A stretch of 52,764 nucleotides of DNA from Candidatus Methanophagales archaeon (GTDB taxonomy: Archaea; Halobacteriota; Syntropharchaeia; Alkanophagales; Methanospirareceae): assembly GCA_025435355.1 (NCBI GenBank), contig JANJFQ010000002.1, positions 1-52,764 on the forward strand, read 5' to 3'. The position numbers were made by a program, and so were the translations under genes. Every line of letters starts with the position of its first letter. Positions within the stretch are counted from its first letter, which is position 1. Of this stretch, positions 157 through 23,719 are shown in pieces. Under the pieces are notes generated by a model. That model was not told the DNA's origin. It did no database searches and was given only the letters and a program-made list of their open reading frames with translations.

Positions 157-582
157 TTAAAAACGGAAATGAATTTTGTCTGGGGTTTTTAGGTTTGAAA
201 CAATTGATGCTTCCCCCTTTTCAATCCTAAGAAGAAGTCTATAATGTGTCCAGCTCAATTCGTGACGCAGTGCGTCACAATTTGGGAAAGTTTGATAAAA
301 GGATCTCATATTTCTTAGGTTCGACTCATCAAAACCTCTGCCATAGTCTTTTGTTAATCTTATAGATAACTCTTTTATAAGCCCTTTTCCATATTCTGCC
401 CTCTCTTCTCCTTTTTGTTCTTCCTCAACGATGATTCTGCCTACCTCCCAATAAGCCTGAACCATAGCAAAATTAACAGCGCGGTAGGCAGTGTTGCGTG
501 CTTTTTCTACTATTACTTTTATGTTCTGGTATGTGGTATCTATGGATGACTGCTCCTTTAACGCTACGTTTTCTTCACTCAT
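157..582 (-). pseudogene. DUF1016/YhcG-like protein, N-terminal fragment only (PD-(D/E)xK nuclease half missing)
   Basis: The 141-aa ORF has the N-terminal helical region typical of DUF1016 genes found inside type I R-M operons (AVNFAMVQAYWEVGRIIVEEEQ, LSWTHYRLLL). It stops far short of the usual length. Its start overlaps the hsdM stop by 8 nt. Confidence 0.5.
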
Positions 583-2128
583 TTCTGCTCCCCTCCAGTA
601 TCTTTACCACATTCTCGGCAATCTTCTCTTCAAACTCATGCGCTTCGGCGTTCAGCCGTTCCAGTTCTTCGTTTAGCTCATGCAATCTCTCGTTGAAATC
701 AAAATCCTCTTCTTCCTTTTCCGCAACACCCACATACCTGCCGGGGTTCAACGAATATCCCTGGTCTATGATTTCTTCTATAGTCGCCACATTGCAAAGT
801 CCGGGAATATCACGATATTCACTCTCTGGAAAATATTGTTCCATAAGTTTCTGGCTTCCTTTATCCGTTTCTACGCGCTCTTCACGGTAACGTCTCACGA
901 TATTGGCAATAAATTCTATCTGCTCAGGTGTAAATTCCCTGTGCGCACGGTCTATCTGCCGGTAAATACTGCGGGCGTCTATAAACAAAACATTGTCCTT
1001 GCGATTGGTATGCTTCTTTCCTGTATCAAAAAACCAGAGCGTGCAGGGCAATGTCACGGTATAAAAGAAATTCGGACCTATGGTAATCACTACACTCACC
1101 GCTCTATCTTCTACCAGTTTCTTTCGGATTTCCAGTTCTGACTGACGGGCATCGCTGGCTGAATTCGCCATCACAAAACCTGCTCTGCCGTTTTCATTCA
1201 ATGCATGCCAGAAAATCTGTATCCAGAGGTAATTGGCATTGTCCACTTTTGGAACGCCATAACCAAACCGCTTATCCGCTCTGGCTTTCTCCTTATCCAC
1301 GCCATTAACATTGAAAGGCGGATTTGCCATCACGAAGTCGAACTTACCGATGCTGTTGTGGAAATCTTCATAGTAAGTGTTGCCCTGCCGAATATCGCCT
1401 GATAGACCATGAACTGTGAGGTTCATCTTGCAAAGTCGCACTGTCTCTGCCGTCTTTTCCTGTCCGTAAATAGAGATTTCCGCACTGGGATTCTTTTTGT
1501 GTCTTTCTACAAATTTCGCACTCTGCACGAACATACCGCCAGAACCACAGGCGGGGTCATGGATTCTGCCGTGGTACGGTTCAATCACTTCCACGATGAG
1601 TTTTACCAGCGAGGTTGGAGTAAAAAACTCACCGCCTCTTTGCCCTTCAGCCATGGCGAACTTCCCTAGGAAATATTCATATATCTTCCCAAAGACATCG
1701 CCTTCAAGTGTCATGGGGATACTGGAGAATATTTTGAGCAGTGCGACAAGAACATCATTTTCCAGCCTGTTATAAGTTTTTGGAAGAACATCTTTCAGGT
1801 CTTCATTTTCTATTTCAATTGCTTTCATGGCATCGTTAATCGCTTTGCCTATGTTTTCTCCTTCCGGGAGATTCAAGAGATATGAAAAACGAGCATTCTC
1901 CGGAAGATAAAGAATACCTTTCGCCTGATAATCGGCTTTTGTGATTCCACGACGGCTACTCATCCGTTGTTTTTCTATTTCGTTTTTAGCAAGTGTGAAC
2001 TTATAGTCTGCGAAACGTAAGAAAATTAAACCCAGAACAGGGACGGAGTATTCAGAAGATTTAAGCCTCGAATTAGCCCTGAGTTGGTCCGCGGCATTCC
2101 ATAACCTTTTTTCTATTTCGTTTATCAC
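575..2128 (-). CDS. hsdM: Type I restriction-modification N6-adenine DNA methyltransferase subunit (HsdM)
   Basis: 517 aa. It has the HsdM N-terminal helix (LWNAADQLR), SAM-binding motif I ([10 protein letters not shown]) and catalytic motif IV NPPF (MANPPFN). Confidence 0.9.
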
Positions 2129-2388
2129 ATCAATCCCTCTTCTTTTAAACTTGTAAACCCATTTTTACCTATTATAATATGGTCAAGGATGTCAATGCCC
2201 ATAACCTTTCCGGTTTCGACCATTCTTTTTGTAATCTCTAAAACACCTTCCTTTTTTGTCCCTCTCCCTAAAATTATGGCTAATAATTCTGAGTTTTTCA
2301 ATGTACTGGGACCGTATTTCTTGAGTTTTTCCCCCGGTCTTTCCTCAAGGGGCAATTCTGTGATTTTTGGTTTGTATTCGATGTTCAT
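2125..2388 (-). pseudogene. RadC-like remnant (JAB/MPN core deleted)
   Basis: In this 87-aa ORF a RadC N-terminal segment ([19 protein letters not shown]) is joined directly to the extreme RadC C-terminus ([23 protein letters not shown]). There is a 4-nt overlap with the hsdM start. Confidence 0.5.
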
Positions 2389-2434: not shown

Positions 2435-2923
2435 TTAACTTATTTGTTTCTGAGCGTGAACATCTGCCTTTTTTTCTTTAATTTGGCTAAGAAAATCTTC
2501 TAGTTCTTTGAGATTCCTTGCAATTCTATACTTTAGAACCCCCGTAATCAGAGGGTTATCTACGTCTGACATGAGTGTTCTTGAATCAGTTTTCAGACCA
2601 AGACATTCTTTCCCTAGAGCATAAGCATATCCAATCTCAACACATGCCCCTTCATCTGGGACTCTACCATCCATAACAAAAATCACAATATCCGATTTTT
2701 GAAGCTCATCAATGTCTCGCTTAAAAATTTTCTCCATAGCGAAGGATTTAGCTGTACCATTTGCTAATAGCTCCGATAGCTTATGGCCATCACGTTGTGG
2801 CAGAAATGTCTCAAAGCCTAGATTCTCAAGATATTCACTTAAATATTCGTTATACCGCATCTCGGCTTTCGAGAATAACGGGCCTGCCACATATATCCGT
2901 GTCATGCGTATCAAGCCCTCCAT
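2435..2923 (-). CDS. Nucleoside 2-deoxyribosyltransferase-family (NDT/DNPH1-like) protein
   Basis: Contains [12 protein letters not shown] near the N-terminus and [21 protein letters not shown] (the conserved Glu region of PF05014-type proteins). The likely true start is the ATG at 2905. Confidence 0.7.
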
Positions 2924-2984
2924 TGACCCCTCTTTTTATAACATTTGAGAGGGGCAGTGAAAGAACTAGTTTTTATTTTTATTT

Positions 2985-4229
2985 TTATGTTCCCATTATA
3001 AAAGATTGTCGATTTGGCTGCACTCCACACTGGGAGCAGAAACCCTCGCGAAATGTTGCAATTCTTTTTGGGAGCATAATTTCTTTGAACCTACTTTCAA
3101 AGTATCTATCCGTCATACCCGCTATATAATCCCTCACTTTTTCTTCAGAAGTAGAACTAGCAAGGTATTCTTTACTAATCCAATCGAGATCCATAAAATG
3201 TTCATATATTTTACTTTTATTTTCGTTTTCAAGGTCCTCTAAAAATTTTCGACAAAGTACCTTGTACATTTCTTCAATTTTTCCGGGTTCTGCTAATATC
3301 TTCTTATTATCGTAGATATTCTCTGTGTTAAAATCTTTATATTCCTCTACGCTTTTTGAAATTTCTGTCGAATACGAAATGTGATTTTTGCTATAACTAT
3401 TTTCGACTATATCAATAATAAGTGAGTTTATTATTCCGTCATTTTTTGTTCCAATATTTTCTATACAACGCTGTGGGACTTCCGAATCGTCATTTAGGAG
3501 GCCTATTTCTATTGCATCTTGAAGATCTCTACCTAAATATGCTATTGTATCGGCGAATCTTACAACACATCCTTCTAAAGTCATAGGAACACAATCTTTT
3601 TTATTTTTACCTTTGAATTTTATATCCTCTATTTCCTTATCAAATTTTTCCCAGTTCTTATCTGTATTGGGCTTTAATGATTTATTGTGGATTTCACCAT
3701 TATGACACAAAATTCCATCAAGTACTTGAAGCGTTAAATTACAATCTTCAATCTTATCAAGAAATTGAACACTTTGAACATTATGCAAGAATCTACCGAG
3801 TCCATGTTCTTCACACAATTCAGACAGAATTTTCTCACCTGGATGACCAAAGGGAACATGACCAATATCATGTCCTATTGAAATTGCCTCAATTAAATCT
3901 TCGTTTAATTTAAGGGCCCTTCCTATAGTTCGGGCAATCTTCGAAACCAGTTGGACATGAAGAACACGATGTGTAATATGATCGTTATCCACTAAAAAAA
4001 ATACTTGAGTTTTATCAATATATCTTGAATAAGCATGTGTATGCAAAATCCGATCAGCGTCTCTTGAGTATTTAGCCCGGAAATCCTCTGTATCTTTTTT
4101 CTTCCTTCTTAATCCCTCAGCACTTTTGGAAGCAAATTTTGATAAATACTCCTTTTCCCTCGTCGCAATATAAGACTTTATTTTTTTTTCTAAATCCTCT
4201 TTTAGTTTTTTCTCGTACTTATCCTTCAT
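2985..4229 (-). CDS. dGTPase-like dNTP triphosphohydrolase (HD domain)
   Basis: 414 aa. Motifs seen: RDADRILHTHAYSRYIDKTQVF, HITHRVLHVQLVS, IGHDIGHVPFGHPGE and C-terminal DYIAGMTDRYF. All are characteristic of the Dgt/dGTPase family. Confidence 0.85.
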   Translation of the reverse strand: MKDKYEKKLKEDLEKKIKSYIATREKEYLSKFASKSAEGLRRKKKDTEDFRAKYSRDADRILHTHAYSRYIDKTQVFFLVDNDHITHRVLHVQLVSKIARTIGRALKLNEDLIEAISIGHDIGHVPFGHPGEKILSELCEEHGLGRFLHNVQSVQFLDKIEDCNLTLQVLDGILCHNGEIHNKSLKPNTDKNWEKFDKEIEDIKFKGKNKKDCVPMTLEGCVVRFADTIAYLGRDLQDAIEIGLLNDDSEVPQRCIENIGTKNDGIINSLIIDIVENSYSKNHISYSTEISKSVEEYKDFNTENIYDNKKILAEPGKIEEMYKVLCRKFLEDLENENKSKIYEHFMDLDWISKEYLASSTSEEKVRDYIAGMTDRYFESRFKEIMLPKRIATFREGFCSQCGVQPNRQSFIMGT

Positions 4230-4333
4230 CAGATTGCCTCCCTAGTGAAGGGAATTATTTTCCCCCTCCTTTGAAACCTCGTAAACCCCGTAAATTCATC
4301 CTTCGGAATACTTTTGGTGATTTGGATACTCAT
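4229..4333 (-). pseudogene. 34-codon remnant of a type IIG R-M gene N-terminus, now an upstream ORF overlapping the dGTPase start
   Basis: The minus strand reads MSIQITKSIPKDEFTGFTRFQRRGKIIPFTREAI*. This is homologous to the start of the 1327-aa gene (MSHTNSNYSIIPKDKFTEFVEFQRAT). Its TGA overlaps the ATG of the dGTPase-like gene (TGATG). Confidence 0.6.
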
Positions 4334-4815
4334 ATTAATTTTGATATACAAAGTATGGATAAAAACCTTCTGATAAATCGAATTTTTTAATCAAAGGTTT
4401 CCAATTTTGTTAAGATATATTTGCTAATTTATTAACGAATATTTTAAAAAATTTTAAAAGGTACTAATTCACAAAATACCTTCGCTTTCCGCAACAGCCT
4501 TTAAAAGTAGCTAACCAAATGCGAAGATTTCAGATATGTGACGAGGGAAAGAACTGATATAAGCATGACACACTGGCTTTAACATGCCAGAAAGAGTCAC
4601 TGGGATGAATTACATGATTATTATACGCCACCTTCCCGCAGCAACCTTACCAGGCACAGTTCCAATTAACGAGGTTGTAAAGTTATCGTGTGTTCTCACT
4701 TGAAAAATAGTTACCCCATTTCGCGAAATAGCCATTTATGGTACAAGCACAGAATTGCGTGGCATCCCAGCCCTTTTATTTCGAGTTTACATCTGATCGC
4801 TTTTTACTGTAAACT
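4268..4815. repeat. R1 direct repeat, copy 1 (~550 bp; partner 20030-20597)
   Basis: Aligned by eye to 20030-20597 in the same orientation. There are long identical runs, including a 65-nt identical block (4607-4671 = 20383-20447). The homology is cut at 4815 by an IS fragment. Confidence 0.9.
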
Positions 4816-5120: not shown

Positions 5121-6172
5121 GTATGGGCTACACCCCTAAAAAAGCGCATCCGCAAACTCCAATTTTTCAATAATCTCCTTTTGCTCTTTAGTGAGAACAG
5201 AAATTTTATCACATTTTTCTCCTCCAAAATCAAGCGTAGTTTTTCTTATTCTACCCAGTTCATCCAGACTATCTTCAACACCTTCCCAACCCGCAACGCC
5301 TAAATGATGCTTATACAGTGCCAGAACCAAATATGCAAGATAGCAGATAAAAATATAAACGTCAATATTACCTTCCTCAAAATGCCTGACCGGCTGCAGA
5401 TCTAACCAGTTTTTGAAGCAATCGAATATCTTTTCAATGACATCTTTACCAAAATACGTAGAAATAATCTTAGATGCACTCTTCTCAAAATTCGTTGTGA
5501 AAAGCAAGCATTTACCATCTCGAAGCCTTGCATTTTTTCGATTTTCTGCGTGAGGATTTACTGTTATTTTTTTCCCGTCGTTGTTTATCTCGAAATTATT
5601 AAATTATTCCTTGAAGCCATCCCACGATCCATGATTATTGCATCAATGCTGAGATCTACCCGTTTGACATCTGCAATAAGTTGTTCTATCGTCCTTACAT
5701 CTGTTATATTACCCTCATACGTCCTGAAAAGGACGGGCAAACCTTTGTTCTTTGTTGCGACCAATCCCATGTTTATCTGAGGTAAGCTGTTATCATCCTG
5801 ATTGTATCCGGGTCGCGCTTTAGGCAATTTTGTCGAATAAAAATAAATCGTAAAGAACTGTTATGTCACCATATCTTACCGACTTTGTAATCTCAAACTC
5901 TTTAAAGCGTTTTTTCGGAGGGATTATCTGCTTTTCGCCATTTATTGTCACTTCTATACCTAAATAGCGGGTATTACGATGTTTTACTTTGCCTGAACTA
6001 TCCCTGTAGTTCTCCCGCTCATACACATATACGCGCGACCCGCGCCTTATTCTTGTTTTTGCCATGTAGTCTGTATATGGGCTACAAGTGTATATAGCTT
6101 TTGACGGGTTATGATTGAGTAATGCTCCTTAGATTATGATTTAGTACAGATACGTGATATTGTAGCCTATAA
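5121..6172 (-). mobile_element. Degenerate IS (IS1634/IS4-like) with candidate terminal inverted repeats
   Basis: tatgggctaca (5122-5132) and tgtagcctata (6161-6171) form a 10/11 inverted repeat. The interior holds three transposase fragments in different frames. Confidence 0.5.
5136..6065 (-). pseudogene. Fragmented DDE transposase (IS1634/IS4-like), three ORF pieces
   Basis: The pieces are 6065-5820 (RVYVYERENYRDSSGKVKHRNTRYLG, an N-terminus typical of IS1634-type transposases), 5827-5585 (a DDE-region piece, IIMDRGMAS) and 5507-5136 (a C-terminal piece). Their summed length is far below a full transposase. Confidence 0.55.
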
Positions 6173-6321: not shown

Positions 6322-7806
6322 TTAACCACAAACAGACACTGGCTTGCAACTACCCTTGTTACAAGAAATCTTTCCATGAAGTGTAGTGCATCTGATCCCA
6401 CAAACAATAAAACAACATCGTTTTCTTTTTTCTAAAGGTTCGCTTAACCAGTTCATTTCACTTTCTATGCCTGTTTTTCTAATATTGGCAGGATAATAGT
6501 TGTCTATTTCTTTTAAAACGTCACCTAACTGATATTTCCATACACCACAATGTTTACTTTTTGGTTCTAACAGATTACGGTAAACACAATTTCCATAACA
6601 AAGCGGTAATACCTCACATTCTCGGCACTCTGGATCATCTAGTGGAGAATAGCCAATCCATTTGTTTAATGTGCCAGAAGTCATAACACCGTCTCTTAAA
6701 TTTCCAACCCTCTCCTTTTCATCTCCAATCGGCACCCAGCATTTTTGTAAGTTACCATTAGGTTCTACAACAAAGGCGTTATCCATTTCAGCGGCGCATA
6801 ATCCAAAAGTAGTGGCTGGGACCAAATAAGGTTCGGGATCCCATCCCTTTTGAATGGCCGTTTTATTAAAATTAACATAAGTTTCAGCAAAGAAATCATC
6901 TACTATACATTTTGTTGTAATATCATTACATGAGCGTATAGCCCCTATAGGTTCAATTTGACCGACATAAACCTGTACTTTATTTTTCAATCCTTCAGAT
7001 GCCAGATAATCTAAAAGCTTATCCAAACATGGCACATTATCTTTGTTAAGGTTTATTCTAAGGTATATCGATGGCAAAATGTCTAGTGCATTCTTAATGT
7101 TTTCGATAATGGTATCGAATGTACCCTTGTTGCCTTTGCTATATCTAGTTTTATTATGTATTTCCCTTGTACCATCCAGCGAAATTTGAACAAAGGTGAC
7201 GTTACTGTCTCTTAATTTCTTTGCATTTTCCTCAGTAAGCAGAACTCCATTAGTTATAATCCCCGAAGAGTATTCACAATTATGTTGAGAGCACAACTTT
7301 AAAAATCTATCGGTTAACTCAACAATGGTATCGACAGCTAATAGTGGCTCTCCTCCATACCATGACACACCAAAGTATTTAACATTCTCTAAATGTTTTT
7401 CAACAAATGTTACCAGTTCGTCCTGTACGGATTTGTCCATATGTTCCCTATTCTTCGCTTCATAACAATAAGGACAGTGTAAATTACAATCTGAAGTTGG
7501 CATAATTGTTAACCCAAAACTTGACGAATCAAACTTTCTCCTATTTACCAGAATCTCTATATTTTTTAACTCATCAAAATCATCATCTAAAATAAAACCT
7601 CCTTTCTTCATATCATCGACCGTAGTAATAAGCCTAATTACCTCTCTACTTTCTATTGTTATCTTTCCTTTGGTCAGTGAAGTTAGCGATTCGTATATCT
7701 CATAACCCGATTGGGATAATATGCCTAATGCGCCAGTAGCCGCATTAAATGCCACCCAGCTTCCATCTTCTCTTTTTTCAAAAAAGTTGAACTTAGATTT
7801 TTTCAT
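6322..7806 (-). CDS. Radical SAM / SPASM-domain enzyme (peptide-maturase-like) with a Cys-rich C-terminal extension
   Basis: Has the CxxxCxxC radical SAM motif (CNLHCPYC) and SPASM cysteines (CAAEMDNAFVVEPNGNLQKC, CRECEVLPLCYGNC, HCG). A ~55-aa tail follows, ending KRKRCCFIVCGIRCTTLHGKISCNKGSCKPVSVCG. The best start is the ATG at 7806, preceded by aggagg; the ORF track starts at a TTG at 7824. Confidence 0.85.
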   Translation of the reverse strand: MKKSKFNFFEKREDGSWVAFNAATGALGILSQSGYEIYESLTSLTKGKITIESREVIRLITTVDDMKKGGFILDDDFDELKNIEILVNRRKFDSSSFGLTIMPTSDCNLHCPYCYEAKNREHMDKSVQDELVTFVEKHLENVKYFGVSWYGGEPLLAVDTIVELTDRFLKLCSQHNCEYSSGIITNGVLLTEENAKKLRDSNVTFVQISLDGTREIHNKTRYSKGNKGTFDTIIENIKNALDILPSIYLRINLNKDNVPCLDKLLDYLASEGLKNKVQVYVGQIEPIGAIRSCNDITTKCIVDDFFAETYVNFNKTAIQKGWDPEPYLVPATTFGLCAAEMDNAFVVEPNGNLQKCWVPIGDEKERVGNLRDGVMTSGTLNKWIGYSPLDDPECRECEVLPLCYGNCVYRNLLEPKSKHCGVWKYQLGDVLKEIDNYYPANIRKTGIESEMNWLSEPLEKRKRCCFIVCGIRCTTLHGKISCNKGSCKPVSVCG

Positions 7807-7847
7807 CTTTCTCCTCCTTTTCAAAATTTGCCGAAGTCACTATACCC

Positions 7848-7994: not shown

Positions 7995-8156
7995 GAACCT
8001 GGATAAATAAGCATGGTAACACAAACCAACTGAGAGAATGAACAGCTCATTCACAGGGGTTATTTCATGTTCGCTTTTTTCGAGTGAAAGCAGTGAAAGA
8101 TAAACCATTAAACCAAAGGAGATAGCATGGCTAAAAAGAAGGCGTTAATGGTTGGG
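7995..8156. repeat. R2 repeat, copy A
   Basis: Aligned by eye to 13770-13922 (copy C), including aaaggnga tagc ATGgctaa(a/g)aagaagg(c/a)gttaatggttggg. Confidence 0.7.
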
Positions 8157-9897: not shown

Positions 9898-11973
9898 TTA
9901 CCTCTCATAAAAAGGAACGGCATCAAATCTTATTGCATCCCTGTTACTTGAGAACTTCACATAAGCTGAGAACTTAGAGGATAGGTCATTCTTTACATTC
10001 TGCCATGTAACTTTACCGCCAAGATGCTCAGCAATGCTTTTAGCGTATTTCGGATCGGTCAGTTGCAATGACATAATTCCGCCTATGTTATTGTAAACGA
10101 CATCGGTAAAGTCCACAGGGTCTTGCGTTGCAAGGAGCATTCCAACACCATACTTCCTCGCTTCTTTAAGTAATTGCCCTGCTGATGCCTCCCTTTCGTA
10201 TTTAAGGCGATGTGCCTCGTCAATGGTGACGTATAACCTTGGCTCTCGGGATTCTCCAAGTTTATCGAGGTAATATCTCAGTTTTCGCATAAAGAACTCA
10301 CAAACCACTGATTTAAGCTTCTCATTGGGTAAAATTCCTAGATTCACAACTGTTTGACCTTTCGTAATTTTCTCAAAAGGCATCACAGTTTTAGCAGAAA
10401 ATATCCTATAGTCAAAAATAGGGTCTAATCTGGCAAATATGCCTTCAATTGAAGACCTTGTCCCGCTATCTCCTCCCTCAAATATCCTATTTAAGTTATT
10501 TTGGATATCATCAAACGTTGGCGGGACATTGTTCCAGCTATCCTCCTCCTCTTCGTTGATACTCTTGTCTTCATAGCTATGTTTGATAGCACTTCGGATG
10601 TATCCTATTTGCCTTTCACCAATATTATAAACCAAGTCAATGATGTCTGAAATCTGGTATTTCTGATCTTTTGGAGTGTTATCGCCATCAAGTTCAAGTG
10701 GATTGATTGATATTGTGCTCAAATCTAATATTTGACCAAATTCTGATTCTTTTTCTTTTGAAATATAATCGTTCCGGAAGTCAAAAATTATATATGGGAG
10801 CTTAAATTTCGCAAATTCGGAAAGAATAGCTTTTACTGTTTGTGTCTTTCCAGTTCCCGCACTTCCAACGATAACAAAACTCCAGTTAATCTCCTTTTTT
10901 GGCTCCCAAAAAATCTCTTTGTTGTTTTTATCACTACCTAAAAGTATTTTCAGATCAGAAGGAGATGGGATTGGAGGCTTAATCTCTTCCTTTACGTCAG
11001 TTATAACCTTAACGACCTCTTTTTCTTCTTCTTTGCCTTTTCCTTCAATTCTCTCTGACGAAGTTTCAAAAATGGGCTCCAACAGATTCTTTTCAAGCCA
11101 ATCTTCGTATCTACGTCTGTTTTTAATCGAAAACGGAGCTTGTGAACCCTGAAAACCCCGATACTTGCTTGTTATCCCCATTTCCGCCATTTTATTTACG
11201 GTTTCTTTAATTTTTTCCTCGTCAAGCTCAGCGCTTATCAGTTGTTCCCACAAAAAATCCCTAAACGCATCTGAGGAATAAGGATGAGCAAAATAAGAGT
11301 AAGATAATACACCATATATCCTAATTTTGTCGTGTTCTTCGGGTGTAGTTGTAAAGGCTTCTTTTGGGCAAAGTTCCATCAAAACCTCGAAAACTTCTGG
11401 AGCGATAACATAATTTTCTTCACGAAGACCCTTCGCAACATAGTGCTTTGTTCTGATACACAATCCAAATCCCTCTAGCTTCATTAATACAGAAGTCCAA
11501 GCTCTGTGGATTTTGTTGCTCTTTCTAAGGCGGTCCTTCCAGTTAAAACCAACTATGTCACCTGCATCAACTGGATAAATAAATTCTCTATACTCCTTTT
11601 TTAGATAATGCTCCTGGATAATAAAATTTAAGATCTTTTGTGGTTGTTCATTCAAAAATCTCTCTATATCTTCTTTATTTTCGTCAATTAGGTTAGTTAC
11701 CGCCAGTTCACCAATTTTTAATCCCTTTTCCGTAGTGCAATAGAGATGATTAGAGTAATATTTACCCTCCTCAATGTAGTTGTGCTTCAACAACAATGCA
11801 ATGAGTTTAGTATCAAATTTATAGCAATCCTGCTGTAATATACCATATCCATTCCCAACATTTTGCCCGATATAAATATCCCTTATGATTTCGATGCATT
11901 GAGATATCTCATCATCGTTCAAATCTTCTTCCTTCAATTCTTCTTTAAGATCTGCCAAATTGGAATCATCCAT
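9898..11973 (-). CDS. HerA/FtsK-superfamily (DUF87/AAA_10-like) P-loop ATPase with a ~340-aa uncharacterised N-terminal region
   Basis: Walker A is VIVGSAGTGKTQT and Walker B is LYVTIDEAHRL, followed by ARKYGVGMLLATQDPVDF, which is typical of HerA/VirB4-like ATPases. The N-terminal 340 aa show no motif I recognise. Confidence 0.8.
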   Translation of the reverse strand: MDDSNLADLKEELKEEDLNDDEISQCIEIIRDIYIGQNVGNGYGILQQDCYKFDTKLIALLLKHNYIEEGKYYSNHLYCTTEKGLKIGELAVTNLIDENKEDIERFLNEQPQKILNFIIQEHYLKKEYREFIYPVDAGDIVGFNWKDRLRKSNKIHRAWTSVLMKLEGFGLCIRTKHYVAKGLREENYVIAPEVFEVLMELCPKEAFTTTPEEHDKIRIYGVLSYSYFAHPYSSDAFRDFLWEQLISAELDEEKIKETVNKMAEMGITSKYRGFQGSQAPFSIKNRRRYEDWLEKNLLEPIFETSSERIEGKGKEEEKEVVKVITDVKEEIKPPIPSPSDLKILLGSDKNNKEIFWEPKKEINWSFVIVGSAGTGKTQTVKAILSEFAKFKLPYIIFDFRNDYISKEKESEFGQILDLSTISINPLELDGDNTPKDQKYQISDIIDLVYNIGERQIGYIRSAIKHSYEDKSINEEEEDSWNNVPPTFDDIQNNLNRIFEGGDSGTRSSIEGIFARLDPIFDYRIFSAKTVMPFEKITKGQTVVNLGILPNEKLKSVVCEFFMRKLRYYLDKLGESREPRLYVTIDEAHRLKYEREASAGQLLKEARKYGVGMLLATQDPVDFTDVVYNNIGGIMSLQLTDPKYAKSIAEHLGGKVTWQNVKNDLSSKFSAYVKFSSNRDAIRFDAVPFYER

Positions 11974-13685: not shown

Positions 13686-13922
13686 ATCTCATATACCACA
13701 TCTCCTTGGCTTCATCACAGCCTGTTACCAGCCAGACTGGATGTAAGGTTCAGTTCAGAAGGTTGGATTTTCACCAACTGGATAGATAGTATGAACTTTG
13801 CTCGGCATACTCATATTTGCTTTGGTTTTCAGCTTTATCGCTTTTTCAGGTGAAAGTAGGGGAGAATAAAACGTTAAATCAAAGGTGATAGCATGGCTAA
13901 GAAGAAGGAGTTAATGGTTGGG
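13686..13922. repeat. R2 repeat, copy C (longest; shares its left half with B and its right half with A)
   Basis: See copies A and B. It ends with a truncated MAKKKELMVGKLS* start. Confidence 0.7.
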
Positions 13923-16117: not shown

Positions 16118-19100
16118 TTATCCAGCCGCACTCTCATCATTCCTGTTTTCGTTGCTATCTTTTGAAAGTGAAGATTCAACGATTTTAATCTCCTCATCAG
16201 TGAGTCCATAAAGCTTGTAAACGATCTGGTTAATGAGCTTATCTGTGGCTCCGATTTTGTTTCTTAGCGGAGATAGTACTACTTTACTCTTCTCAAATTC
16301 TTTCTTCAGATTGTCTCGAAATTCCCAGTTTGACACAGTGATAGATATTTTCTTCTTATTCTTCTTAAGGATTTTTAGTAGTTCATCGAATTCGAGTTCG
16401 TAATATGCTTTTAATTTTGTGCGGTTGGTCAGTTTGTCTATTTCTGTCTTTATTTCTCTTTCTAACCACTCCAAAAATCCTTTTGTCTCTTCCTTCTTCT
16501 CTTTATTCATCCCGATCATCCGTTCAGCCAAAAATGCTAAAAGATCATGGATGACATCGGATTTTTCTTTTTCAGTGATGAAGTTACCATCTTCATCTTT
16601 TGGGAGACATTCTTCAACAATTTTAAGGATTTTATCGGACTCATTGTCGCGGTATTTGGATTTTAAGGATTCAAGAATAGTGGTTCGTTCTTCGAGCGGG
16701 GTCGTAAAAGATATTCGTCTGAGAGGAAGTGCTTCAATTTCATATCCATTTACATGGTTGTTCGTACTTGTTAGTCTAAAACGGAACTCTAGTAAATTCG
16801 AATTAAGTATCGCAAGTAAGAAAAATTTCTCTTCGTCTTCGGGGATCAAATAACTAATACTGTCAAACAAATGCTTTTTAGGCGGAATAATAGTAGATAT
16901 TATTCTACGATAGTTATCTAATGCAGCATTTCTCTGGTATCCAATCCTCCAAGAATCCACATGAGCCTTCCTAGATTTATCAGATACTTCAGTATAATAC
17001 TTATCAATATTTAAATACCATTTCTCTCCTTGTTTTGGAATATTAAGCAGTTCATATCTTTGCACAATACCACCTCTAAGAATTTCGGGTCCAATCGGTT
17101 CCTTTATTAGAAACTGTTTCATTGATGTTTCATTAATCTCTCCTTGATACGAATGATATTGATCACCAATTCTTTTTACCCATGATGAGAGGAATATTCT
17201 TTCACATAATATACATTCTTCCGCATTCATTAGTGGAATTGAAAATGAGTGTGCATCAAGTGATTTAATTTTGTTTTGGTCCAATTTATAACATTTTGAC
17301 ACTTCTTTAAATAATCGGCCAGGATGTGTGGTAACAGTCACATTCCGAGTTGGTTTATCTTTTGTAACTACAACTATTGCGGTAGGCAATTTTGCCTCAA
17401 AGAATACCCTCTTATATGGGTCATCTTTTTGAGGAAAAGCCTCAATTTGCTCTATTTGAAAATTATTTAGCATCCATTTTCTAGTTCGAGTTGCTTGGTC
17501 ATCACCTAAAATCGCCATTGGGATGATAAATGATAATCTCATTCCTTCTTTTGTAAGAGCTAATCCTTTGGCAATAAAGAGGCGATAGAGGTTTAGTTTC
17601 TTGTCTTTTGCCGGATAAAATTCAACTTTGGATTTGAAAAAAAGTTTCTCTTGCTCTACAGAATATCCTAATTCTTTTTCAGCAAGAACGTCATAAGGTG
17701 GGTTCCCCACTACACAATCCCATCCCTGATTCTCTTTAACCTCGCCCTCCTCAAAGAACACCTCTGGAAACTCAAGCTCCCAGTGGAAGAAGCTCTTTTC
17801 CTTGGCTATATCGATCGCACTCTTAAACCAATATCTTTGCTTAAATTCGTCCCATTCGTCATTTGAGGAGCTGATAGATTGTAGCATCTCTCTATATTCA
17901 TCGGAAGGCACATCATTTTCAAAGTATATGCTGACGTAAACATCTGCTACTTCTTTGAATCTCTGTATCATCTTTATTATATTTTCATGTATTCTCTCCT
18001 TCTGCTTGATCCGTTCAATGGTATTCGATGGCATTTGCTCTATTTTAGCGAACTTGGATAGAACAGATTTCATGGTCTCTTTGAGTTCTCTGTCCCAGAT
18101 TGTTTGCTGCACCCGCATTCTATTTTCCTCTTTCTTTTTGCTTCTTATTTTCGCATTTGGCAAAACGCCACCCACATCATCGATTTTTGCACCTATAAGA
18201 GAGTTACCACAGCGTAAATGGTGATCCAAGAAAGCGAGTGGTTCGTCCTTTGATATGGTATGTAACCAGAGAGATACCTTGGCAAGCTCTACTGCCAGTA
18301 GATTTAGATCCACGCCGTAGATGCAACGCTCCACAACCTGTCTTTTAGCCCACGTAATTTCATCTTCTTCTCCTCCGGTATCTACTTTTCCTTGTTTTTC
18401 CAATGCTTCTACAATTTCTCTAGCCAAGAAAGAGACGGCCTCAAGTAAAAAATGACCAGATCCCATCGCAGGATCCAAAATTTTGATTGAAAGCAGTTCT
18501 TCTATGAGATTTCCACCGTTCTTACCTACATCTCTCTTCATCGCTTCAACGAGAGGTCCAAGCGTATTCTCCACGATATATTTAACAATATAGTCTGGCG
18601 TGTAATAGGATCCTGTTGCCTTTCTCTCACCCTTATCGGTAACGAGATACAAATCACCTGCGTTAACAACCTTATTCTTGTCTATCTTCTTTCCGCTCTC
18701 TTTTGCCTTCTTTACTGACTGGTAACCCTTTTTTCCTTTTTCCTTTGTAATGATAAAGTCTTCTTCCGCTATCCTAAGCTTGCATTCCAACAATCCTTCA
18801 TAGATAGAGCCGAGCTGTCGGATTCCAAGCGTTTGGTAGTCAATAAAGGCGTTATTTCTTCGTGTAAGAAGATTAATCGCCTCTGCAAGATACTTATCCC
18901 CAACCTTATTGTCTTTTAGAAATGGGTATTTATCCGGATCGAAGAGACGACCATTATATGGTGGTACAAATAGTTCATCTTTCTGTATCTTTCTTGCATT
19001 TAGAAGGTCAAAGAGGTATTCGAGATGTGCCCAATATACAGAGCTTCCTGAATGAAGACTAACCCCATTGTCGATTTTTTCAGCAATTTCTTTCTTCAAA

Positions 19101-20101
19101 AACTCTAAACTGATTGATTTATAGACCTCATTCTCAGTTGGAAGAAGGTCACGCGCTTCGGCATAGAGGATGAACAATATTCTATAAAGGAGTATCAGGG
19201 TGTTAGCATGAATTTTCTTAATGTCCTCCTCATACCAACTCAAATTATTATCTTGATACTTTAAAAAACCTTTTACAAGTAATTTTAGTGCATCATAAAC
19301 ATTTTTTTTTATATCCTCTTCCAATTCCTTTGCAAATCTTACGTTTTTCTCAAATATATCATCCAAGAAGCACTTGCCTTGACCATGGGGAACAAAAGCA
19401 TCCCTCCTGAAAAGAAGATAGAAATATTTAAAATCATTGGTATCACCATGTTCAATTAAATTTACTAAATCAATCTCGTAATAACTATCCAAATTAAAGC
19501 TTGTTTCTTTACAATACAACCTCCAAAGTCTTCCATTTGTGAGAATTCCCCATCTCACATCAGATACTCGTAAATAGATATTTATCTGTGAACTTGGGCT
19601 TGGCTTTCCAATCTCTCTCTTGTCAAGATTCGTACCCCAGGGCTTTGCCTCGCCAATTCCAATTACGCTCCTAAAGTAATCTGTCTCTTTGTCTTCTTTG
19701 ATTTCGTTTTTGTTCTCATCATTCGCAAAAAAGGCATAGTCGGGTCTACCGAAAGTCCCAGACACAGAGCGAATAGATGGTTGAACATCATATATATGCC
19801 CTAAAATTTTTAATATAGGTCTAATAAAATCTTCCTCAAGTTGCGACTCATTTAATCCACCCAACAACTTCTTTTTTTCGAGATATAACTTCTTGATCTC
19901 CTCAAAAGTTTTTCTGTCTTTATGCTCGTCTTTTTTCCAATTCGGGGCATGTATAAGGATATCTTTAAAATAATGCTGTGAGAAAAGGTTCTTAGTTTTA
20001 AAAGGAATAGCATGTGTAGCTAAAGTAGCCCTTTGAAACTCCACAAACTCCGTAAATTTATCCTTCGGAATAATAGAATAATTGCTATTTGTATGGCTCA
20101 T
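16118..20101 (-). CDS. Type IIG (MmeI/Eco57I-like) single-polypeptide restriction endonuclease / N6-adenine methyltransferase
   Basis: 1327 aa. It has an N-terminal PD-ExK nuclease signature (GRPDYAFF ... IGIGEAKPW), GSYYTPDYIV, SAM motif I ILDPAMGSGHFL, catalytic VVGNPPY, and a long C-terminal specificity/helical region. Confidence 0.85.
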   Translation of the reverse strand: MSHTNSNYSIIPKDKFTEFVEFQRATLATHAIPFKTKNLFSQHYFKDILIHAPNWKKDEHKDRKTFEEIKKLYLEKKKLLGGLNESQLEEDFIRPILKILGHIYDVQPSIRSVSGTFGRPDYAFFANDENKNEIKEDKETDYFRSVIGIGEAKPWGTNLDKREIGKPSPSSQINIYLRVSDVRWGILTNGRLWRLYCKETSFNLDSYYEIDLVNLIEHGDTNDFKYFYLLFRRDAFVPHGQGKCFLDDIFEKNVRFAKELEEDIKKNVYDALKLLVKGFLKYQDNNLSWYEEDIKKIHANTLILLYRILFILYAEARDLLPTENEVYKSISLEFLKKEIAEKIDNGVSLHSGSSVYWAHLEYLFDLLNARKIQKDELFVPPYNGRLFDPDKYPFLKDNKVGDKYLAEAINLLTRRNNAFIDYQTLGIRQLGSIYEGLLECKLRIAEEDFIITKEKGKKGYQSVKKAKESGKKIDKNKVVNAGDLYLVTDKGERKATGSYYTPDYIVKYIVENTLGPLVEAMKRDVGKNGGNLIEELLSIKILDPAMGSGHFLLEAVSFLAREIVEALEKQGKVDTGGEEDEITWAKRQVVERCIYGVDLNLLAVELAKVSLWLHTISKDEPLAFLDHHLRCGNSLIGAKIDDVGGVLPNAKIRSKKKEENRMRVQQTIWDRELKETMKSVLSKFAKIEQMPSNTIERIKQKERIHENIIKMIQRFKEVADVYVSIYFENDVPSDEYREMLQSISSSNDEWDEFKQRYWFKSAIDIAKEKSFFHWELEFPEVFFEEGEVKENQGWDCVVGNPPYDVLAEKELGYSVEQEKLFFKSKVEFYPAKDKKLNLYRLFIAKGLALTKEGMRLSFIIPMAILGDDQATRTRKWMLNNFQIEQIEAFPQKDDPYKRVFFEAKLPTAIVVVTKDKPTRNVTVTTHPGRLFKEVSKCYKLDQNKIKSLDAHSFSIPLMNAEECILCERIFLSSWVKRIGDQYHSYQGEINETSMKQFLIKEPIGPEILRGGIVQRYELLNIPKQGEKWYLNIDKYYTEVSDKSRKAHVDSWRIGYQRNAALDNYRRIISTIIPPKKHLFDSISYLIPEDEEKFFLLAILNSNLLEFRFRLTSTNNHVNGYEIEALPLRRISFTTPLEERTTILESLKSKYRDNESDKILKIVEECLPKDEDGNFITEKEKSDVIHDLLAFLAERMIGMNKEKKEETKGFLEWLEREIKTEIDKLTNRTKLKAYYELEFDELLKILKKNKKKISITVSNWEFRDNLKKEFEKSKVVLSPLRNKIGATDKLINQIVYKLYGLTDEEIKIVESSLSKDSNENRNDESAAG

Positions 20102-20597
20102 ATTAATTCCGATATCCCGAGTATGGATAAAAACCTTCTGATAAGTCGAATTTTTTAATCAAATTTTTCCAATTTTGTTAACATATACTTGTTAATTTAT
20201 TAGCGAATATTTTAAAAAAATTTTAAAAGATATTGATTTACAAAATACCTTCGCTTTTCGCAACAGCCTTTAAAAGTAGCTAACCAAATGCGAAGATTTC
20301 AGATATGTGACGAGTGAGGAGTTGAAAAACTGGTATACGCATCACACTGACTTTAACCAGCCAGAAAGAGACATTGAGCTGAGAATTACATGATTATTAT
20401 ACGCCACCTTCCCGCAGCAACCTTACCAGGCACAGTTCCAATTAACGTGGTTGTAAAGTTATCGTGTGTTCTCTCTCTCACTTGAAAAATGGGTATCCCA
20501 TTTCGCGAAATAGCTATTTATGGTACAAGCACCGAATTGCGTGGCATCCCAGCCCTTTTATTTCGAGTTTACATCGGATCGCTTTTTACTGTAAACT
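20030..20597. repeat. R1 direct repeat, copy 2 (first ~24 codons of the type IIG gene plus ~500 bp upstream)
   Basis: See copy 1. It contains the overlapping palindromes atttcgcgaaat (20500-20511) and aaatagctattt (20508-20519). Confidence 0.9.
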
Positions 20598-21616: not shown

Positions 21617-23719
21617 CTAAAGGATCAAAAAATAAATTGAAATTATCATCACAGCGACTATTGCTATTACTATTACGAACATTCGTATCTGTGGAAATGG
21701 TGGTGTAGGCGTTGGTGTTGGTGTTGGTGTTGGTGTTGGCGTAGGTGCTGACGACGTCGGCGAAGGTGTTGGAATTAGCATAGGCGTTACTTCGGACGCT
21801 GATGCTGCCGCTACTTCTGCAAATAATGCGAATACAGTGAAATGACGTATCATCGTGCTCGCCGTGTGTGTTGTCACATTAACCGTTGTTTCGAGCTCCA
21901 TCCATGTATCGTTCTCATACACCTTAATTACAAGCTCTGATTCGGTCGTTCCTTCTGGTATCTTCGCGGGATCATAGTTTATGCTAAATTCTACTGCCGG
22001 CTCAAATTTTACACCATTGGGTCTCAGGTCATATGCGGCTACCGCTCCTTCGAACGGCGGTGATAAAATGTTAATTGGGCTGGTTAATGGATTTCCTTGC
22101 GCATCCAGAACGGTTGTTCCTTTGGGAATCTTCAAGAACGCACTTTCATCACGCGAAGTTAAAGTAACAGTGTATCTTACAACGCCTTTTGAATCTATGG
22201 GAACATTAGGAACCGGACGTGCTTCGCCGCCACCACCACCGCTACTGCTGGCGGTGGCATCACTTTTTTCTTCCTTTGATGATGCTTTTTTAGTCTTCGT
22301 TGTCTGATTTACCCACGTTTCATTGACGTTTCCGGTTGTATCCGCGGTATGAGTTCCAATTTCGTAGCTTGTGTTCTCGATAAGTCCCGTGGCATTGTGA
22401 TAGGTGCCGGAGGTGTTTGTTTCCCATTCGCCGTTCATATACACCATTGTGTGATTGAAATCCGCATCTATGGGGTTTGTCCACGTCCAGTTAATCCACG
22501 TGGTGCCCGTGTCGCTCTGTACATTAGAGATGCTTCCGGGTGGTGTTTCATCAGGTGCAGCTTCCGTCTTCGTTGTCTGATTTACCCACGTGCTATTGAC
22601 GTTTCCGGTTGTATCCGCGGTACGAGTTCCAATTTCGTAGCTTGTGTTCTCGATAAGTCCAGTGGCATTGTGATAGGTGCCGGAGGTGTTTGTTTCCCAT
22701 TCGCCGTTCATACATACCATTGTGTGATTGAAATCCGCATCGGATGGATTTGTCCACGTCCAGTTAATCCACGTGGTGCCCGTATTGTTCTGTACATTAT
22801 AGATGCTTGCAGGTGGTATCGTATCAGGTGCAACTTCCGTCTTCGTTGTTTGGTTCATCCACGTGGTATTGACGTTTCCGTTTGTATCCACCGTACGCGT
22901 TCCTATCTCATAGCTCGTGTCGAGACTAAGCCCTGTGGCATTGTAATACGCATCAGAAGTGTTTGTTTGCCATGTGCCGTTCAAATACACCAGCGTGTGA
23001 CTGAAATCGTAATCTGTGGGATTAGTCCACGTCCAGTTAATCCACGTGGTGCCTGTGTTGTTCTGTAAATTATAGATGCTTGTGGGTGGTGTTTCATCAG
23101 GTGCAACTTCCGTCTTCGCTGTTTGGTTCATCCACGTGGTATTGACGTTTCCGTTTGTATCCACCGTATGCGTTCCGATTTCATAGCTCGTGTTAGCGAT
23201 AAGTCCAGTGGCATTGTAATACGCATCAGAAGTGTTTGTTTGCCATGTGCCGTTCAAATACACCATTGTGTGACTGAAATCGGCATCTGTGGGATTTGTC
23301 CACGTCCAGTTGATCCATGTTGTTCCGGTTGTGCTTGTTAAGTTAGTGATATTTGGAGGCGGTGTTGTGTCAGGCACACGAACTGTTATTTCTTTGCTCG
23401 TTGAATTTTCCGTTCTATTATCATCTCTTACTGTTAAGTTCACTGTGTAGTTTCCTACTGAAGAATAAATGTGGGTTATTGTTTCTTCTTTTTTTGCGAT
23501 GTTTCCAGCGCCAAAATTCCATTTATATTTCGTGATGTTTCCACCATCGGGATCATAAGAACCAGAAGCGTTGAAGGTTATTGTTTGATCGACAACGGGA
23601 TTTTTTGGTGAATATGTAAAGGATGCAACAGGAGGTGTATTGGCGGATGTCATTCCTACGGAGACACAAATCAACAAAAGAGCAACAACACTTAACAACG
23701 TTCCATTTTTTGTATTCAT
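21617..23719 (-). CDS. Secreted/cell-surface glycoprotein: signal peptide, PKD-like domain, four FN3-like repeats, PGF-pre-PGF-like domain, PT-rich linker and C-terminal TM anchor
   Basis: The N-terminal signal is LLSVVALLLICVSVGMTSA and the PKD-like region is FTYSPKNPVVDQTITFNASGSYDPDG. Four ~91-aa repeats are dense in N-x-S/T sequons. The C-terminus is (PT)n followed by a hydrophobic segment. Confidence 0.8.
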   Translation of the reverse strand: MNTKNGTLLSVVALLLICVSVGMTSANTPPVASFTYSPKNPVVDQTITFNASGSYDPDGGNITKYKWNFGAGNIAKKEETITHIYSSVGNYTVNLTVRDDNRTENSTSKEITVRVPDTTPPPNITNLTSTTGTTWINWTWTNPTDADFSHTMVYLNGTWQTNTSDAYYNATGLIANTSYEIGTHTVDTNGNVNTTWMNQTAKTEVAPDETPPTSIYNLQNNTGTTWINWTWTNPTDYDFSHTLVYLNGTWQTNTSDAYYNATGLSLDTSYEIGTRTVDTNGNVNTTWMNQTTKTEVAPDTIPPASIYNVQNNTGTTWINWTWTNPSDADFNHTMVCMNGEWETNTSGTYHNATGLIENTSYEIGTRTADTTGNVNSTWVNQTTKTEAAPDETPPGSISNVQSDTGTTWINWTWTNPIDADFNHTMVYMNGEWETNTSGTYHNATGLIENTSYEIGTHTADTTGNVNETWVNQTTKTKKASSKEEKSDATASSSGGGGGEARPVPNVPIDSKGVVRYTVTLTSRDESAFLKIPKGTTVLDAQGNPLTSPINILSPPFEGAVAAYDLRPNGVKFEPAVEFSINYDPAKIPEGTTESELVIKVYENDTWMELETTVNVTTHTASTMIRHFTVFALFAEVAAASASEVTPMLIPTPSPTSSAPTPTPTPTPTPTPTPPFPQIRMFVIVIAIVAVMIISIYFLIL
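22280..23375. repeat. Four tandem ~273-bp coding repeats inside the surface protein gene
   Basis: The repeated unit is TPP.SI.N.Q..TGTTWINWTWTNP.D.DF.HT.VY.NG.W.TNTS..Y.NATGL...TSYEIGT.T.DT.GNVN.TW.NQT.KTE.APD. Confidence 0.85.

Follow-up and report, generated by a model that had tools for sequence, protein, structure and literature searches.

We analysed a 52,764-nt stretch of DNA from a Candidatus Methanophagales archaeon (contig JANJFQ010000002.1, assembly GCA_025435355.1; hereafter the window) and focus here on two adjacent genes near its start, one predicted to encode an HD-domain deoxynucleoside triphosphate (dNTP) triphosphohydrolase, the other a nucleoside 2'-deoxyribosyltransferase (NDT). 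The dNTPase-NDT cassette formed by these genes is real, moves horizontally and has apparently not been described before, and the best explanation of its distribution is that the pair is one functional accessory cassette of anaerobic archaea. Both animals (SAMHD1) and bacteria (dGTPase, dCTP deaminase) are known to counter viruses by depleting dNTPs. To our knowledge, immunity of this kind is undescribed in archaea and has never been described as a fixed two-enzyme unit. Our preferred, still tentative reading (probability roughly 0.43) is that the cassette is an antiviral dNTP-restriction module in which the NDT would provide an anti-salvage step.

The initial annotation of this DNA described the genes as co-directional and 61 nt apart, which we confirmed (Table 1), and proposed examining whether the two families co-occur elsewhere. 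The names attached to the best matches and the metagenome runs that contain the sequence indicate that the host is ANME-1-like and lives in marine sediment. Scanning a single genome for each GTDB species yielded 80 NDT loci. The HD gene lies directly upstream of the NDT gene in 19 of the 27 assessable species-level loci with an NDT at least 54% identical to that of the window, and next to it in none of the 51 loci with more distant NDTs; the adjacency exceeds chance by far. The paired loci include Methanophagales/ANME-1 (anaerobic methanotrophic archaea, ANME), Methanoperedens, ANME-3, other Methanosarcinales, Methanoregula and a Thermoplasmata metagenome-assembled genome (MAG), and look-ups of individual proteins add further pairs, including some in Altiarchaeales and on several long contigs. 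The HD-then-NDT order was seen in about 20 independent genomic contexts, and both order and orientation are constant in every pair, with spacers of -4 to ~120 nt. The identities of the HD and NDT proteins to the window copies co-vary (r = 0.94), and the two genes are inherited and transferred as a unit. In the 150 best-matching representatives of the NDT family, fusions joined the NDT to a deoxynucleoside kinase, to a HAD phosphatase or to a second NDT domain, and none joined it to HD.

Family scores and intact catalytic residues uphold the initial assignment of the two products as dGTPase-like and NDT-like. The HD protein exceeds the cutoffs of PF01966 (HD; 45.7 bits against 22), PF13286 (HD_assoc; 33.4 against 22.2) and TIGR01353 (dGTP_triPase; 161.7 against 152.35). 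It also matches the PADLOC dGTPase model over profile positions 19-380 of 395 (174.7 bits, E = 9e-52), a model that has no stated cutoff and that a generic Dgt protein may match equally. The best solved relative is the Thermus thermophilus dNTPase TT1383 (PDB 2dqb, E = 7e-34), with which the protein has the GHDxGHxPFGHxGE and RxxD motifs in common; TT1383 differs in having no known NDT pairing, and the alignment is strong over the N-terminal 160 residues only. Residues H91, H120, D121, H124, H129, E132 and D227 are invariant in 22 HD orthologues and align with 2dqb, so placed that the protein holds the metal-binding H...HD...D quartet and the catalytic His and Glu of the GHDxGHxPFGHxGE motif. 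The HD protein is, on these criteria, a predicted member of the Dgt dNTPase family that lies outside the NCBIfam anti-phage dGTPase families, and it probably converts dNTP to deoxynucleoside and triphosphate. The HD gene of the closest relative (L001:4303-5925) encodes ~35 extra N-terminal residues and a ~95-residue insertion after residue ~380 compared with all other orthologues.

The NDT protein scores 82.7 bits against PF05014 (cutoff 28.8) and 54.7 bits against PF15891; most of its homologues use the start that corresponds to M7 (ATG at 2905). Its best solved relative is the biochemically characterised type II enzyme DpNDT of Desulfotalea psychrophila (PDB 7O62, E = 2.3e-22). Residues Y11, D70, D90, E96 and N123 correspond to Tyr16, Asp74, Asp94, Glu100 and Asn127 of DpNDT. 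Each of them is found in 118-120 of the 120 close homologues compared, Y11 in all 120. The proteins share these catalytic residues and a tetramer-type short C-terminus (PMC12372993) and differ at Met129 of DpNDT, which is Leu125 in the window NDT (of 120 relatives, 86 have Leu here and 34 have Met). A Tyr at the sugar-discriminating position goes with 2'-deoxy specificity and a Phe with ribonucleoside or nucleoside monophosphate specificity (PMC7308715), and the window protein is by its residues a Tyr-type, putatively deoxynucleoside-specific member of the NDT family. The initial annotation had also allowed for a DNPH1-family enzyme. We rejected a DNPH1/Rcl-type (d)NMP N-glycosidase: DNPH1, Rcl, MilB and BlsM match with E values of 0.19-0.99 against 2e-22 for DpNDT, and Tyr11 is present. 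The same NDT family also includes proteins of ~400-570 aa with two tandem NDT domains.

Since the predicted HD product is a free deoxynucleoside and the NDT is of the deoxynucleoside-specific type, the NDT should act on what the HD enzyme releases, and the two enzymes probably act consecutively. In the first step the HD enzyme would convert dNTP to deoxynucleoside and triphosphate (PPPi). In the second, the NDT would move the deoxyribose to another base (dN + base' -> dN' + base) or, more slowly, transfer it to water to give base and deoxyribose. The deoxynucleoside would be removed or re-sorted instead of simply being re-phosphorylated to the same dNTP, making the NDT a clean-up or anti-salvage step. 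The cassette might in this way act like SAMHD1 or dGTPase, limiting the dNTP supply to viruses and invading DNA in very slow-growing hosts.

The cassette is accessory and horizontally acquired, a conclusion that follows from its GC trough, from empty and decayed sites, from the confinement of its conserved synteny to a single shallow clade and from the HD tree. The GC content of the pair is ~0.30-0.37 regardless of that of the host (0.32-0.57), and the pair is poorer in GC than its flanks at 16 of 17 loci (mean difference -0.092, Wilcoxon p = 3e-5). Values for pair and flanks are, for example, 0.344 and 0.502, 0.304 and 0.518, 0.305 and 0.477, 0.368 and 0.569, and 0.346 and 0.537. The trough, present in L004, L008, L024, L026, L033, L096, L128 and L129, coincides with the two genes only and contains no integrase or other element genes. 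It is not a property of the proteins, because unpaired NDT genes match the GC of their flanks (mean difference +0.004, n = 54) and an HD-only orthologue in the cultured Methanoculleus sp. FWC-SCC1 (56% identity) has host GC (0.60).

Seven ANME-1 species-level loci share the gene order PNPOx-rSAM-YcaO-c10-c5-HD-NDT-MTase-NrdG-NrdD (MTase, methyltransferase). They represent one shallow clade, with dS of ~0.05-0.3 for all genes. Within it, HD has an omega of 0.26-0.48 and NDT one of 0.35-0.72, compared with 0.05-0.28 in flanking genes of equal dS (0.09-0.24 for NrdD); the pair evolves 2-4 times faster (dN/dS) than its neighbours, nrdDG included, and is under purifying selection. We then used the neighbouring MTase as a probe for presence or absence of the pair in JGI metagenomes. 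Filled sites (MTase-NDT-HD-c5) are confined to a close lineage with MTases at least 84% identical, and empty sites (MTase-c5-c10-YcaO), with a gap of 37-80 nt and no remnant, occur in at least three more distant ANME-1 lineages. The site is decayed in L101 (1168-1440), where a clean deletion of ~1.6 kb, evident by comparison with L102 (5898-7789), took the HD gene and the 5' half of the NDT gene and left a C-terminal NDT fragment of ~70 codons between MTase and c5. The HD gene is also split or truncated in L031. The cassette-less ANME-1 blocks (L103-L116 and L125) lack nrdD and nrdG at the syntenic site as well, and the anaerobic ribonucleotide reductase (RNR) genes there therefore look like an insertion too. 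The HD tree is coherent within orders and nests Altiarchaeales beside ANME-1 at 63% identity, a placement that supports horizontal transfer. In the syntenic ANME-1 loci the pair retains a GC of 0.36 against flanks of 0.43 even though it has been vertically inherited and has the same dS as its flanks; possible causes of this unameliorated trough are selection for low expression, silencing or repeated replacement.

These data bear directly on the view that the genes are an ordinary core housekeeping dNTPase and a salvage NDT that are neighbours of defence genes by chance. We favoured this view at first, and the seven syntenic loci beside nrdDG, the housekeeping neighbours found in several other lineages and the native GC of HD-only orthologues in Methanoculleus speak for it. 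We dropped it on the strength of the GC analysis, the empty and decayed sites and the single shallow clade, and now regard it as highly improbable: the syntenic loci have diverged little (dS ~0.1), distant lineages carry the block without the pair, and neither the trough in nearly every host, nor the elevated dN/dS, nor the nesting of Altiarchaeales by ANME-1 is expected from it. The initial annotation had named conserved synteny in core-genome contexts as the finding that would count against a defence pair; such synteny is limited to the shallow ANME-1 clade, whose sister sites are empty and in which the pair is of foreign GC.

The constant low GC could also indicate that the genes derive from a virus or plasmid, where they would have remodelled nucleotide pools in the service of the element (by superinfection exclusion, say, or by removing a canonical dNTP so that a modified one can replace it, as proposed for DatZ and NDT in dZ phages, a precedent described below), and that they persist as a moron or remnant. 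In line with this, phage protein families match both genes (phrog_21998 with 149 bits, phrog_7995 and phrog_1817), and a lone NDT without HD, 71% identical to that of the window, lies in a region with RecT, RusA and IS605 OrfB genes (L130:1-12441, GCA_034189985). This stretch of ~25 co-directional small open reading frames (ORFs), which may be a provirus or a plasmid with an ANME-1-like host, has a GC of 0.386, close to that of the cassette. Single-sequence pattern scans of IMG/VR found no close relative of HD or NDT, however, and INPHARED and PLSDB gave only distant matches, at most 38-49% identical. The restriction of the troughs to the two genes, the purifying selection and vertical inheritance in the ANME-1 clade, and the Dgt-type HD protein, which is not of the YfbR/HD_3 type found in the phage enzyme DatZ (see below), likewise count against a viral origin, which we consider unlikely.

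An antiviral role draws its contextual support from the neighbours of the pair. Restriction-modification (RM) genes occur within ~5 kb in 8 of the 20 independent contexts, and an RM, abortive-infection (Abi) or toxin-antitoxin (TA) gene occurs in 11, three of which have Abi/TA genes only (Table 1). ORFs of at least 200 aa with a [DNS]PP[YFW] methylase motif are present at 6 of 20 paired loci and 3 of 44 unpaired NDT loci (Fisher p = 0.02). The neighbourhood evidence leans toward defence, in a small sample and not exclusively. In L019 (2664-8671), a Halobacteriota (ANME-1-related) MAG, the methylase is 288 aa and the Type ISP RM enzyme 1073 aa long, and ftr, a core gene of methanogenesis, lies just upstream. 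The family of this methylase (cluster c13) adjoins the cassette twice in a Methanoregula MAG (L033).

Several observations weigh against an antiviral role. The defence-neighbour statistics come from 20 loci with a crude control, and 9 of the 20 contexts have housekeeping or unassigned neighbours (POR, thermosome, HisRS, citrate synthase, Cdc6/Kae1); other pair loci adjoin FEN1, RNase PH, tRNA synthetases, Cdc6 or POR. RNR genes lie within ~6 kb in 3 of the 20 contexts (p ~0.007 against an assumed background of 2%), as nrdDG immediately adjoining the pair in the ANME-1 clade, a class II RNR in L001 and NrdD in L131. The enrichment in defence genes that the initial annotation had proposed to examine is seen as an excess near RM/Abi/TA genes, with RNR genes enriched too. 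In the shallow ANME-1 clade, inheritance of the pair is vertical. The scores of the HD protein against the NCBIfam anti-phage dGTPase models (NF041026, 113.6 bits against a cutoff of 400; NF003701, 94.6 against 383) place it outside this curated clade, and its best NCBIfam matches are generic short Dgt equivalogs. NDTs are chiefly transferases, for which hydrolysis is a slow side reaction. Close relatives of the NDT (35-50% identity) are fused to a deoxynucleoside kinase (P0242, P0374) or a HAD phosphatase (P0253), and in Ferroplasma and other Thermoplasmata (L043, L047-L052, L056) the NDT gene lies between genes for an inosine-uridine nucleoside hydrolase and a uridine kinase/PRK-family protein, a conserved three-gene nucleoside salvage cluster. 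In a search for transcripts of the pair, the sequence was matched in DNA metagenome runs only.

Because NDTs are mainly transferases and close relatives are kinase-fused or part of salvage clusters, irreversible destruction of deoxynucleosides, which the initial annotation had put at the end of a consecutive two-step pathway, is not established; the consecutive order itself fits the predicted specificities of the enzymes (dNTP to deoxynucleoside, then deoxynucleoside). The same observations would suit an accessory, non-immune function in balancing or salvage of dNTP pools, with the dNTPase draining excess dNTP, the NDT moving deoxyribose onto other bases and a deoxynucleoside kinase encoded elsewhere in the genome re-phosphorylating the product. 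The cassette might then help slow-growing anaerobes to rebalance their dNTPs independently of RNR, or to recycle deoxyribose and bases. Such a function, to which we give a substantial chance that stays short of even, would account for the RNR neighbours, the NDT-kinase and HAD-NDT fusions, the Thermoplasmata cluster, the full catalytic set of a transferase-type NDT, the resemblance of the HD protein to a generic T. thermophilus dNTPase and the many housekeeping flanks; there is also a precedent in Borrelia, where purine salvage centres on an NDT (PMC2764106). It leaves unexplained the foreign GC, the gain and loss at a syntenic site, the decay, the 2-4 times faster evolution than nrdD and nrdG and the excess of RM/Abi/TA neighbours, and the cassette itself contains no kinase.

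NDT genes are also found in what may be conflict settings. On plasmids of Eleftheria terrae (L132:4286-6444) and Rhizobium (L133:4394-6507), a SIR2-family gene overlaps an NDT gene by 4 nt; the NDTs are 41-49% identical to that of the window, and insertion sequence (IS) elements and a large P-loop NTPase gene are nearby. The SIR2-NDT pair looks like a defence-type operon. An NDT following an enzyme predicted to dephosphorylate or degrade nucleotides thus appears to be a recurring theme, in salvage as well as conflict settings.

Among known systems, one of the closest to a dNTP-restriction module is the single-gene bacterial dGTPase, which defends by dNTP depletion (Tal et al. 2022, as summarised in PMC13276650). 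The cassette HD protein resembles it in belonging to the Dgt/HD superfamily, in its predicted chemistry and in its accessory, island-associated behaviour, while its near full-length PADLOC match is one that generic Dgt proteins may share; it differs in being of the shorter TT1383-like type, archaeal, paired with an NDT and below the NF041026 and NF003701 cutoffs. The resemblance to SAMHD1 is one of analogy, namely the lowering of dNTPs in non-replicating cells for both homeostasis and antiviral restriction; SAMHD1 is only distantly homologous, has a separate allosteric architecture and lacks an NDT partner. Retron-Ec86 and DNPH1/Rcl share the PF05014-type fold, the retron effector being an NDT-like domain in a defence system, but the window protein is a canonical Tyr-type NDT by its residues, and no retron reverse transcriptase or noncoding RNA is present. 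In phages with dZ genomes, PF05014 NDTs co-occur with the HD dATPase DatZ; one such NDT was shown to prefer deoxyadenosine (dA) and is proposed by the authors to deplete the dA pool (bioRxiv 10.1101/2025.10.22.683976). DatZ-NDT thus also couples an HD dNTP triphosphohydrolase to a PF05014 NDT proposed to remove the deoxynucleoside product. Unlike the cassette HD protein, which matches only PF01966 and PF13286 in Pfam (E up to 0.01), DatZ is YfbR-like (HD_3); the phage genes serve genome modification together with PurZ, MazZ and DpoZ, and they co-occur without forming a fixed two-gene operon.

The literature that we searched contained no description of a Dgt-type dNTPase-NDT operon, archaeal or other, nor of a dGTPase in ANME-1. 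The initial claim that the coupling is new accordingly holds for the Dgt-NDT operon, and is tempered by the precedent of DatZ with NDT in dZ phages, which involves another HD family and another purpose. It is possible, though less likely than not, that the cassette represents an immune module of nucleotide depletion that would be the first from archaea and also the first with a dNTPase hard-wired to a deoxyribosyltransferase, a self-contained, AT-rich two-gene unit that spreads horizontally among sediment archaea and would leave viral or host kinases unable to restore the pool.

In the window the cassette lies in a region of low GC (0.372 in the first 21 kb against 0.432 in the remainder) that is rich in RM genes, IS elements and pseudogenes (Table 1). 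An rve transposase is also among the nearby genes, and RadC and DUF1016_N gene remnants sit downstream of the cassette. With HsdM, the type IIG RM gene and the transposase and RadC remnants in this low-GC setting, its initial description as part of a defence island is reasonable. A search of the window for the genes of the ANME-1 syntenic block, nrdDG and YcaO among them, found none. The spacer between the two genes is alignable to ANME-1 relatives, and a DNA identity of ~80% holds across the whole pair. The spacer contains a 7-bp inverted repeat (CCCCTCT...AGAGGGG) around the TATA-like sequence TTATAAAAA (2941-2933), which we infer might act as a promoter.

Table 1. Features of the cassette and its surroundings in the window, and RM, Abi and TA genes near the pair at this and other loci
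Locus	Feature	Position	Strand	Description
Window	HD dNTPase gene	4229..2985	minus	ORF, 414 aa; predicted Dgt-family, TT1383-like short type
Window	NDT gene	2923..2435	minus	ORF, 162 aa; predicted nucleoside 2'-deoxyribosyltransferase
Window	HD/NDT spacer	2924..2984	minus	exactly 61 nt, read directly from the sequence
Window	Leader ORF remnant	4333..4229	minus	ATG at 4333, 34 codons; duplicated N-terminus of the type IIG RM ORF
Window	R1 repeat, copy 1	4268..4815	minus	5' region immediately upstream of the cassette
Window	R1 repeat, copy 2	20030..20597	minus	upstream of the type IIG RM gene and overlapping its start
Window	Eco57I-like type IIG RM gene	20101..16118	minus	1327 aa
Window	Type I HsdM	2128..575	minus	RM-type neighbour
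Window	RadC remnant	2388..2125	minus	87 aa; N-terminal domain joined to the last 36 JAB-domain residues (internal deletion)
Window	DUF1016_N-only fragment	157-582		overlaps the end of hsdM
Window	Transposase fragments	5136-6065		
Window	HerA-like ATPase	11973..9898	minus	
L001	GmrSD			RM-type neighbour
L019	N6_N4 methylase; Type ISP enzyme			methylase between HD and NDT; Type ISP enzyme directly after NDT
L027	HsdM fragments			
L029	Methylase fragment			
L033	IS element and two methylases			
L129	Type III-like Mod/Res pair			directly downstream
L131	BsoBI and methylase			
L011	AbiEii and DUF4411/ImmA			Abi/TA only
L039	AbiEi			Abi/TA only
L128	UPF0175/Fic			Abi/TA only

The 5' region of the cassette is formed by a direct repeat of ~550 nt, R1, whose two copies are 89-98% identical; the R1 leader of the initial annotation is real, its second copy lying at the type IIG RM gene. 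Copy 2 extends over the initial ~21 codons of the RM ORF, from which it follows that the small ORF preceding the HD gene is a duplicated N-terminus of the RM gene. The stop codon of this leader ORF (TGA, 4231-4229) overlaps the start of the HD gene (ATG, 4229-4227), and the reported TGATG junction is indeed found at 4231-4227. About 170 nt of R1 are also present upstream of the HD gene in the closest relative (L001, GCA_049643925), where the leader ORF is in frame with HD, giving a 540-aa gene call. The shared R1 region may supply a common promoter or leader to the cassette and the type IIG RM gene. We rejected R1 as a structured RNA (no Rfam match; fold z-score of -1.14, not significant) and as a mobile element (no match among viral contigs).

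Elsewhere in the window, 6322-7824 encodes a radical SAM/SPASM peptide maturase whose best match, to a Clo7bot-type model, is below the cutoff. Two small ORFs separated by 5.8 kb have an 81-nt repeat in common (8076-8156 and 13842-13922), which spans their start (MAKKKALMVG...) and the sequence upstream of it; they may encode precursor or membrane peptides. Four tandem 273-nt repeats with 72-91% identity (22293-23411) lie within a gene for a 700-aa PKD-domain protein.

If the cassette is immune in function, it would add a second, anti-salvage step to the strategy of dNTP depletion and would give the virology of ANME, Methanoperedens and methanogens a testable defence gene pair. It would also explain why NDTs, an enzyme class used to synthesise nucleoside analogues, recur next to enzymes that degrade nucleotides or NAD (the HD enzyme in this cassette, DatZ in phages and SIR2 on plasmids). 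If it is metabolic, it would be an unusual, horizontally traded and RNR-linked device for dNTP rebalancing. In both cases, the GC trough that persists in a pair retained by vertical descent is worth understanding.

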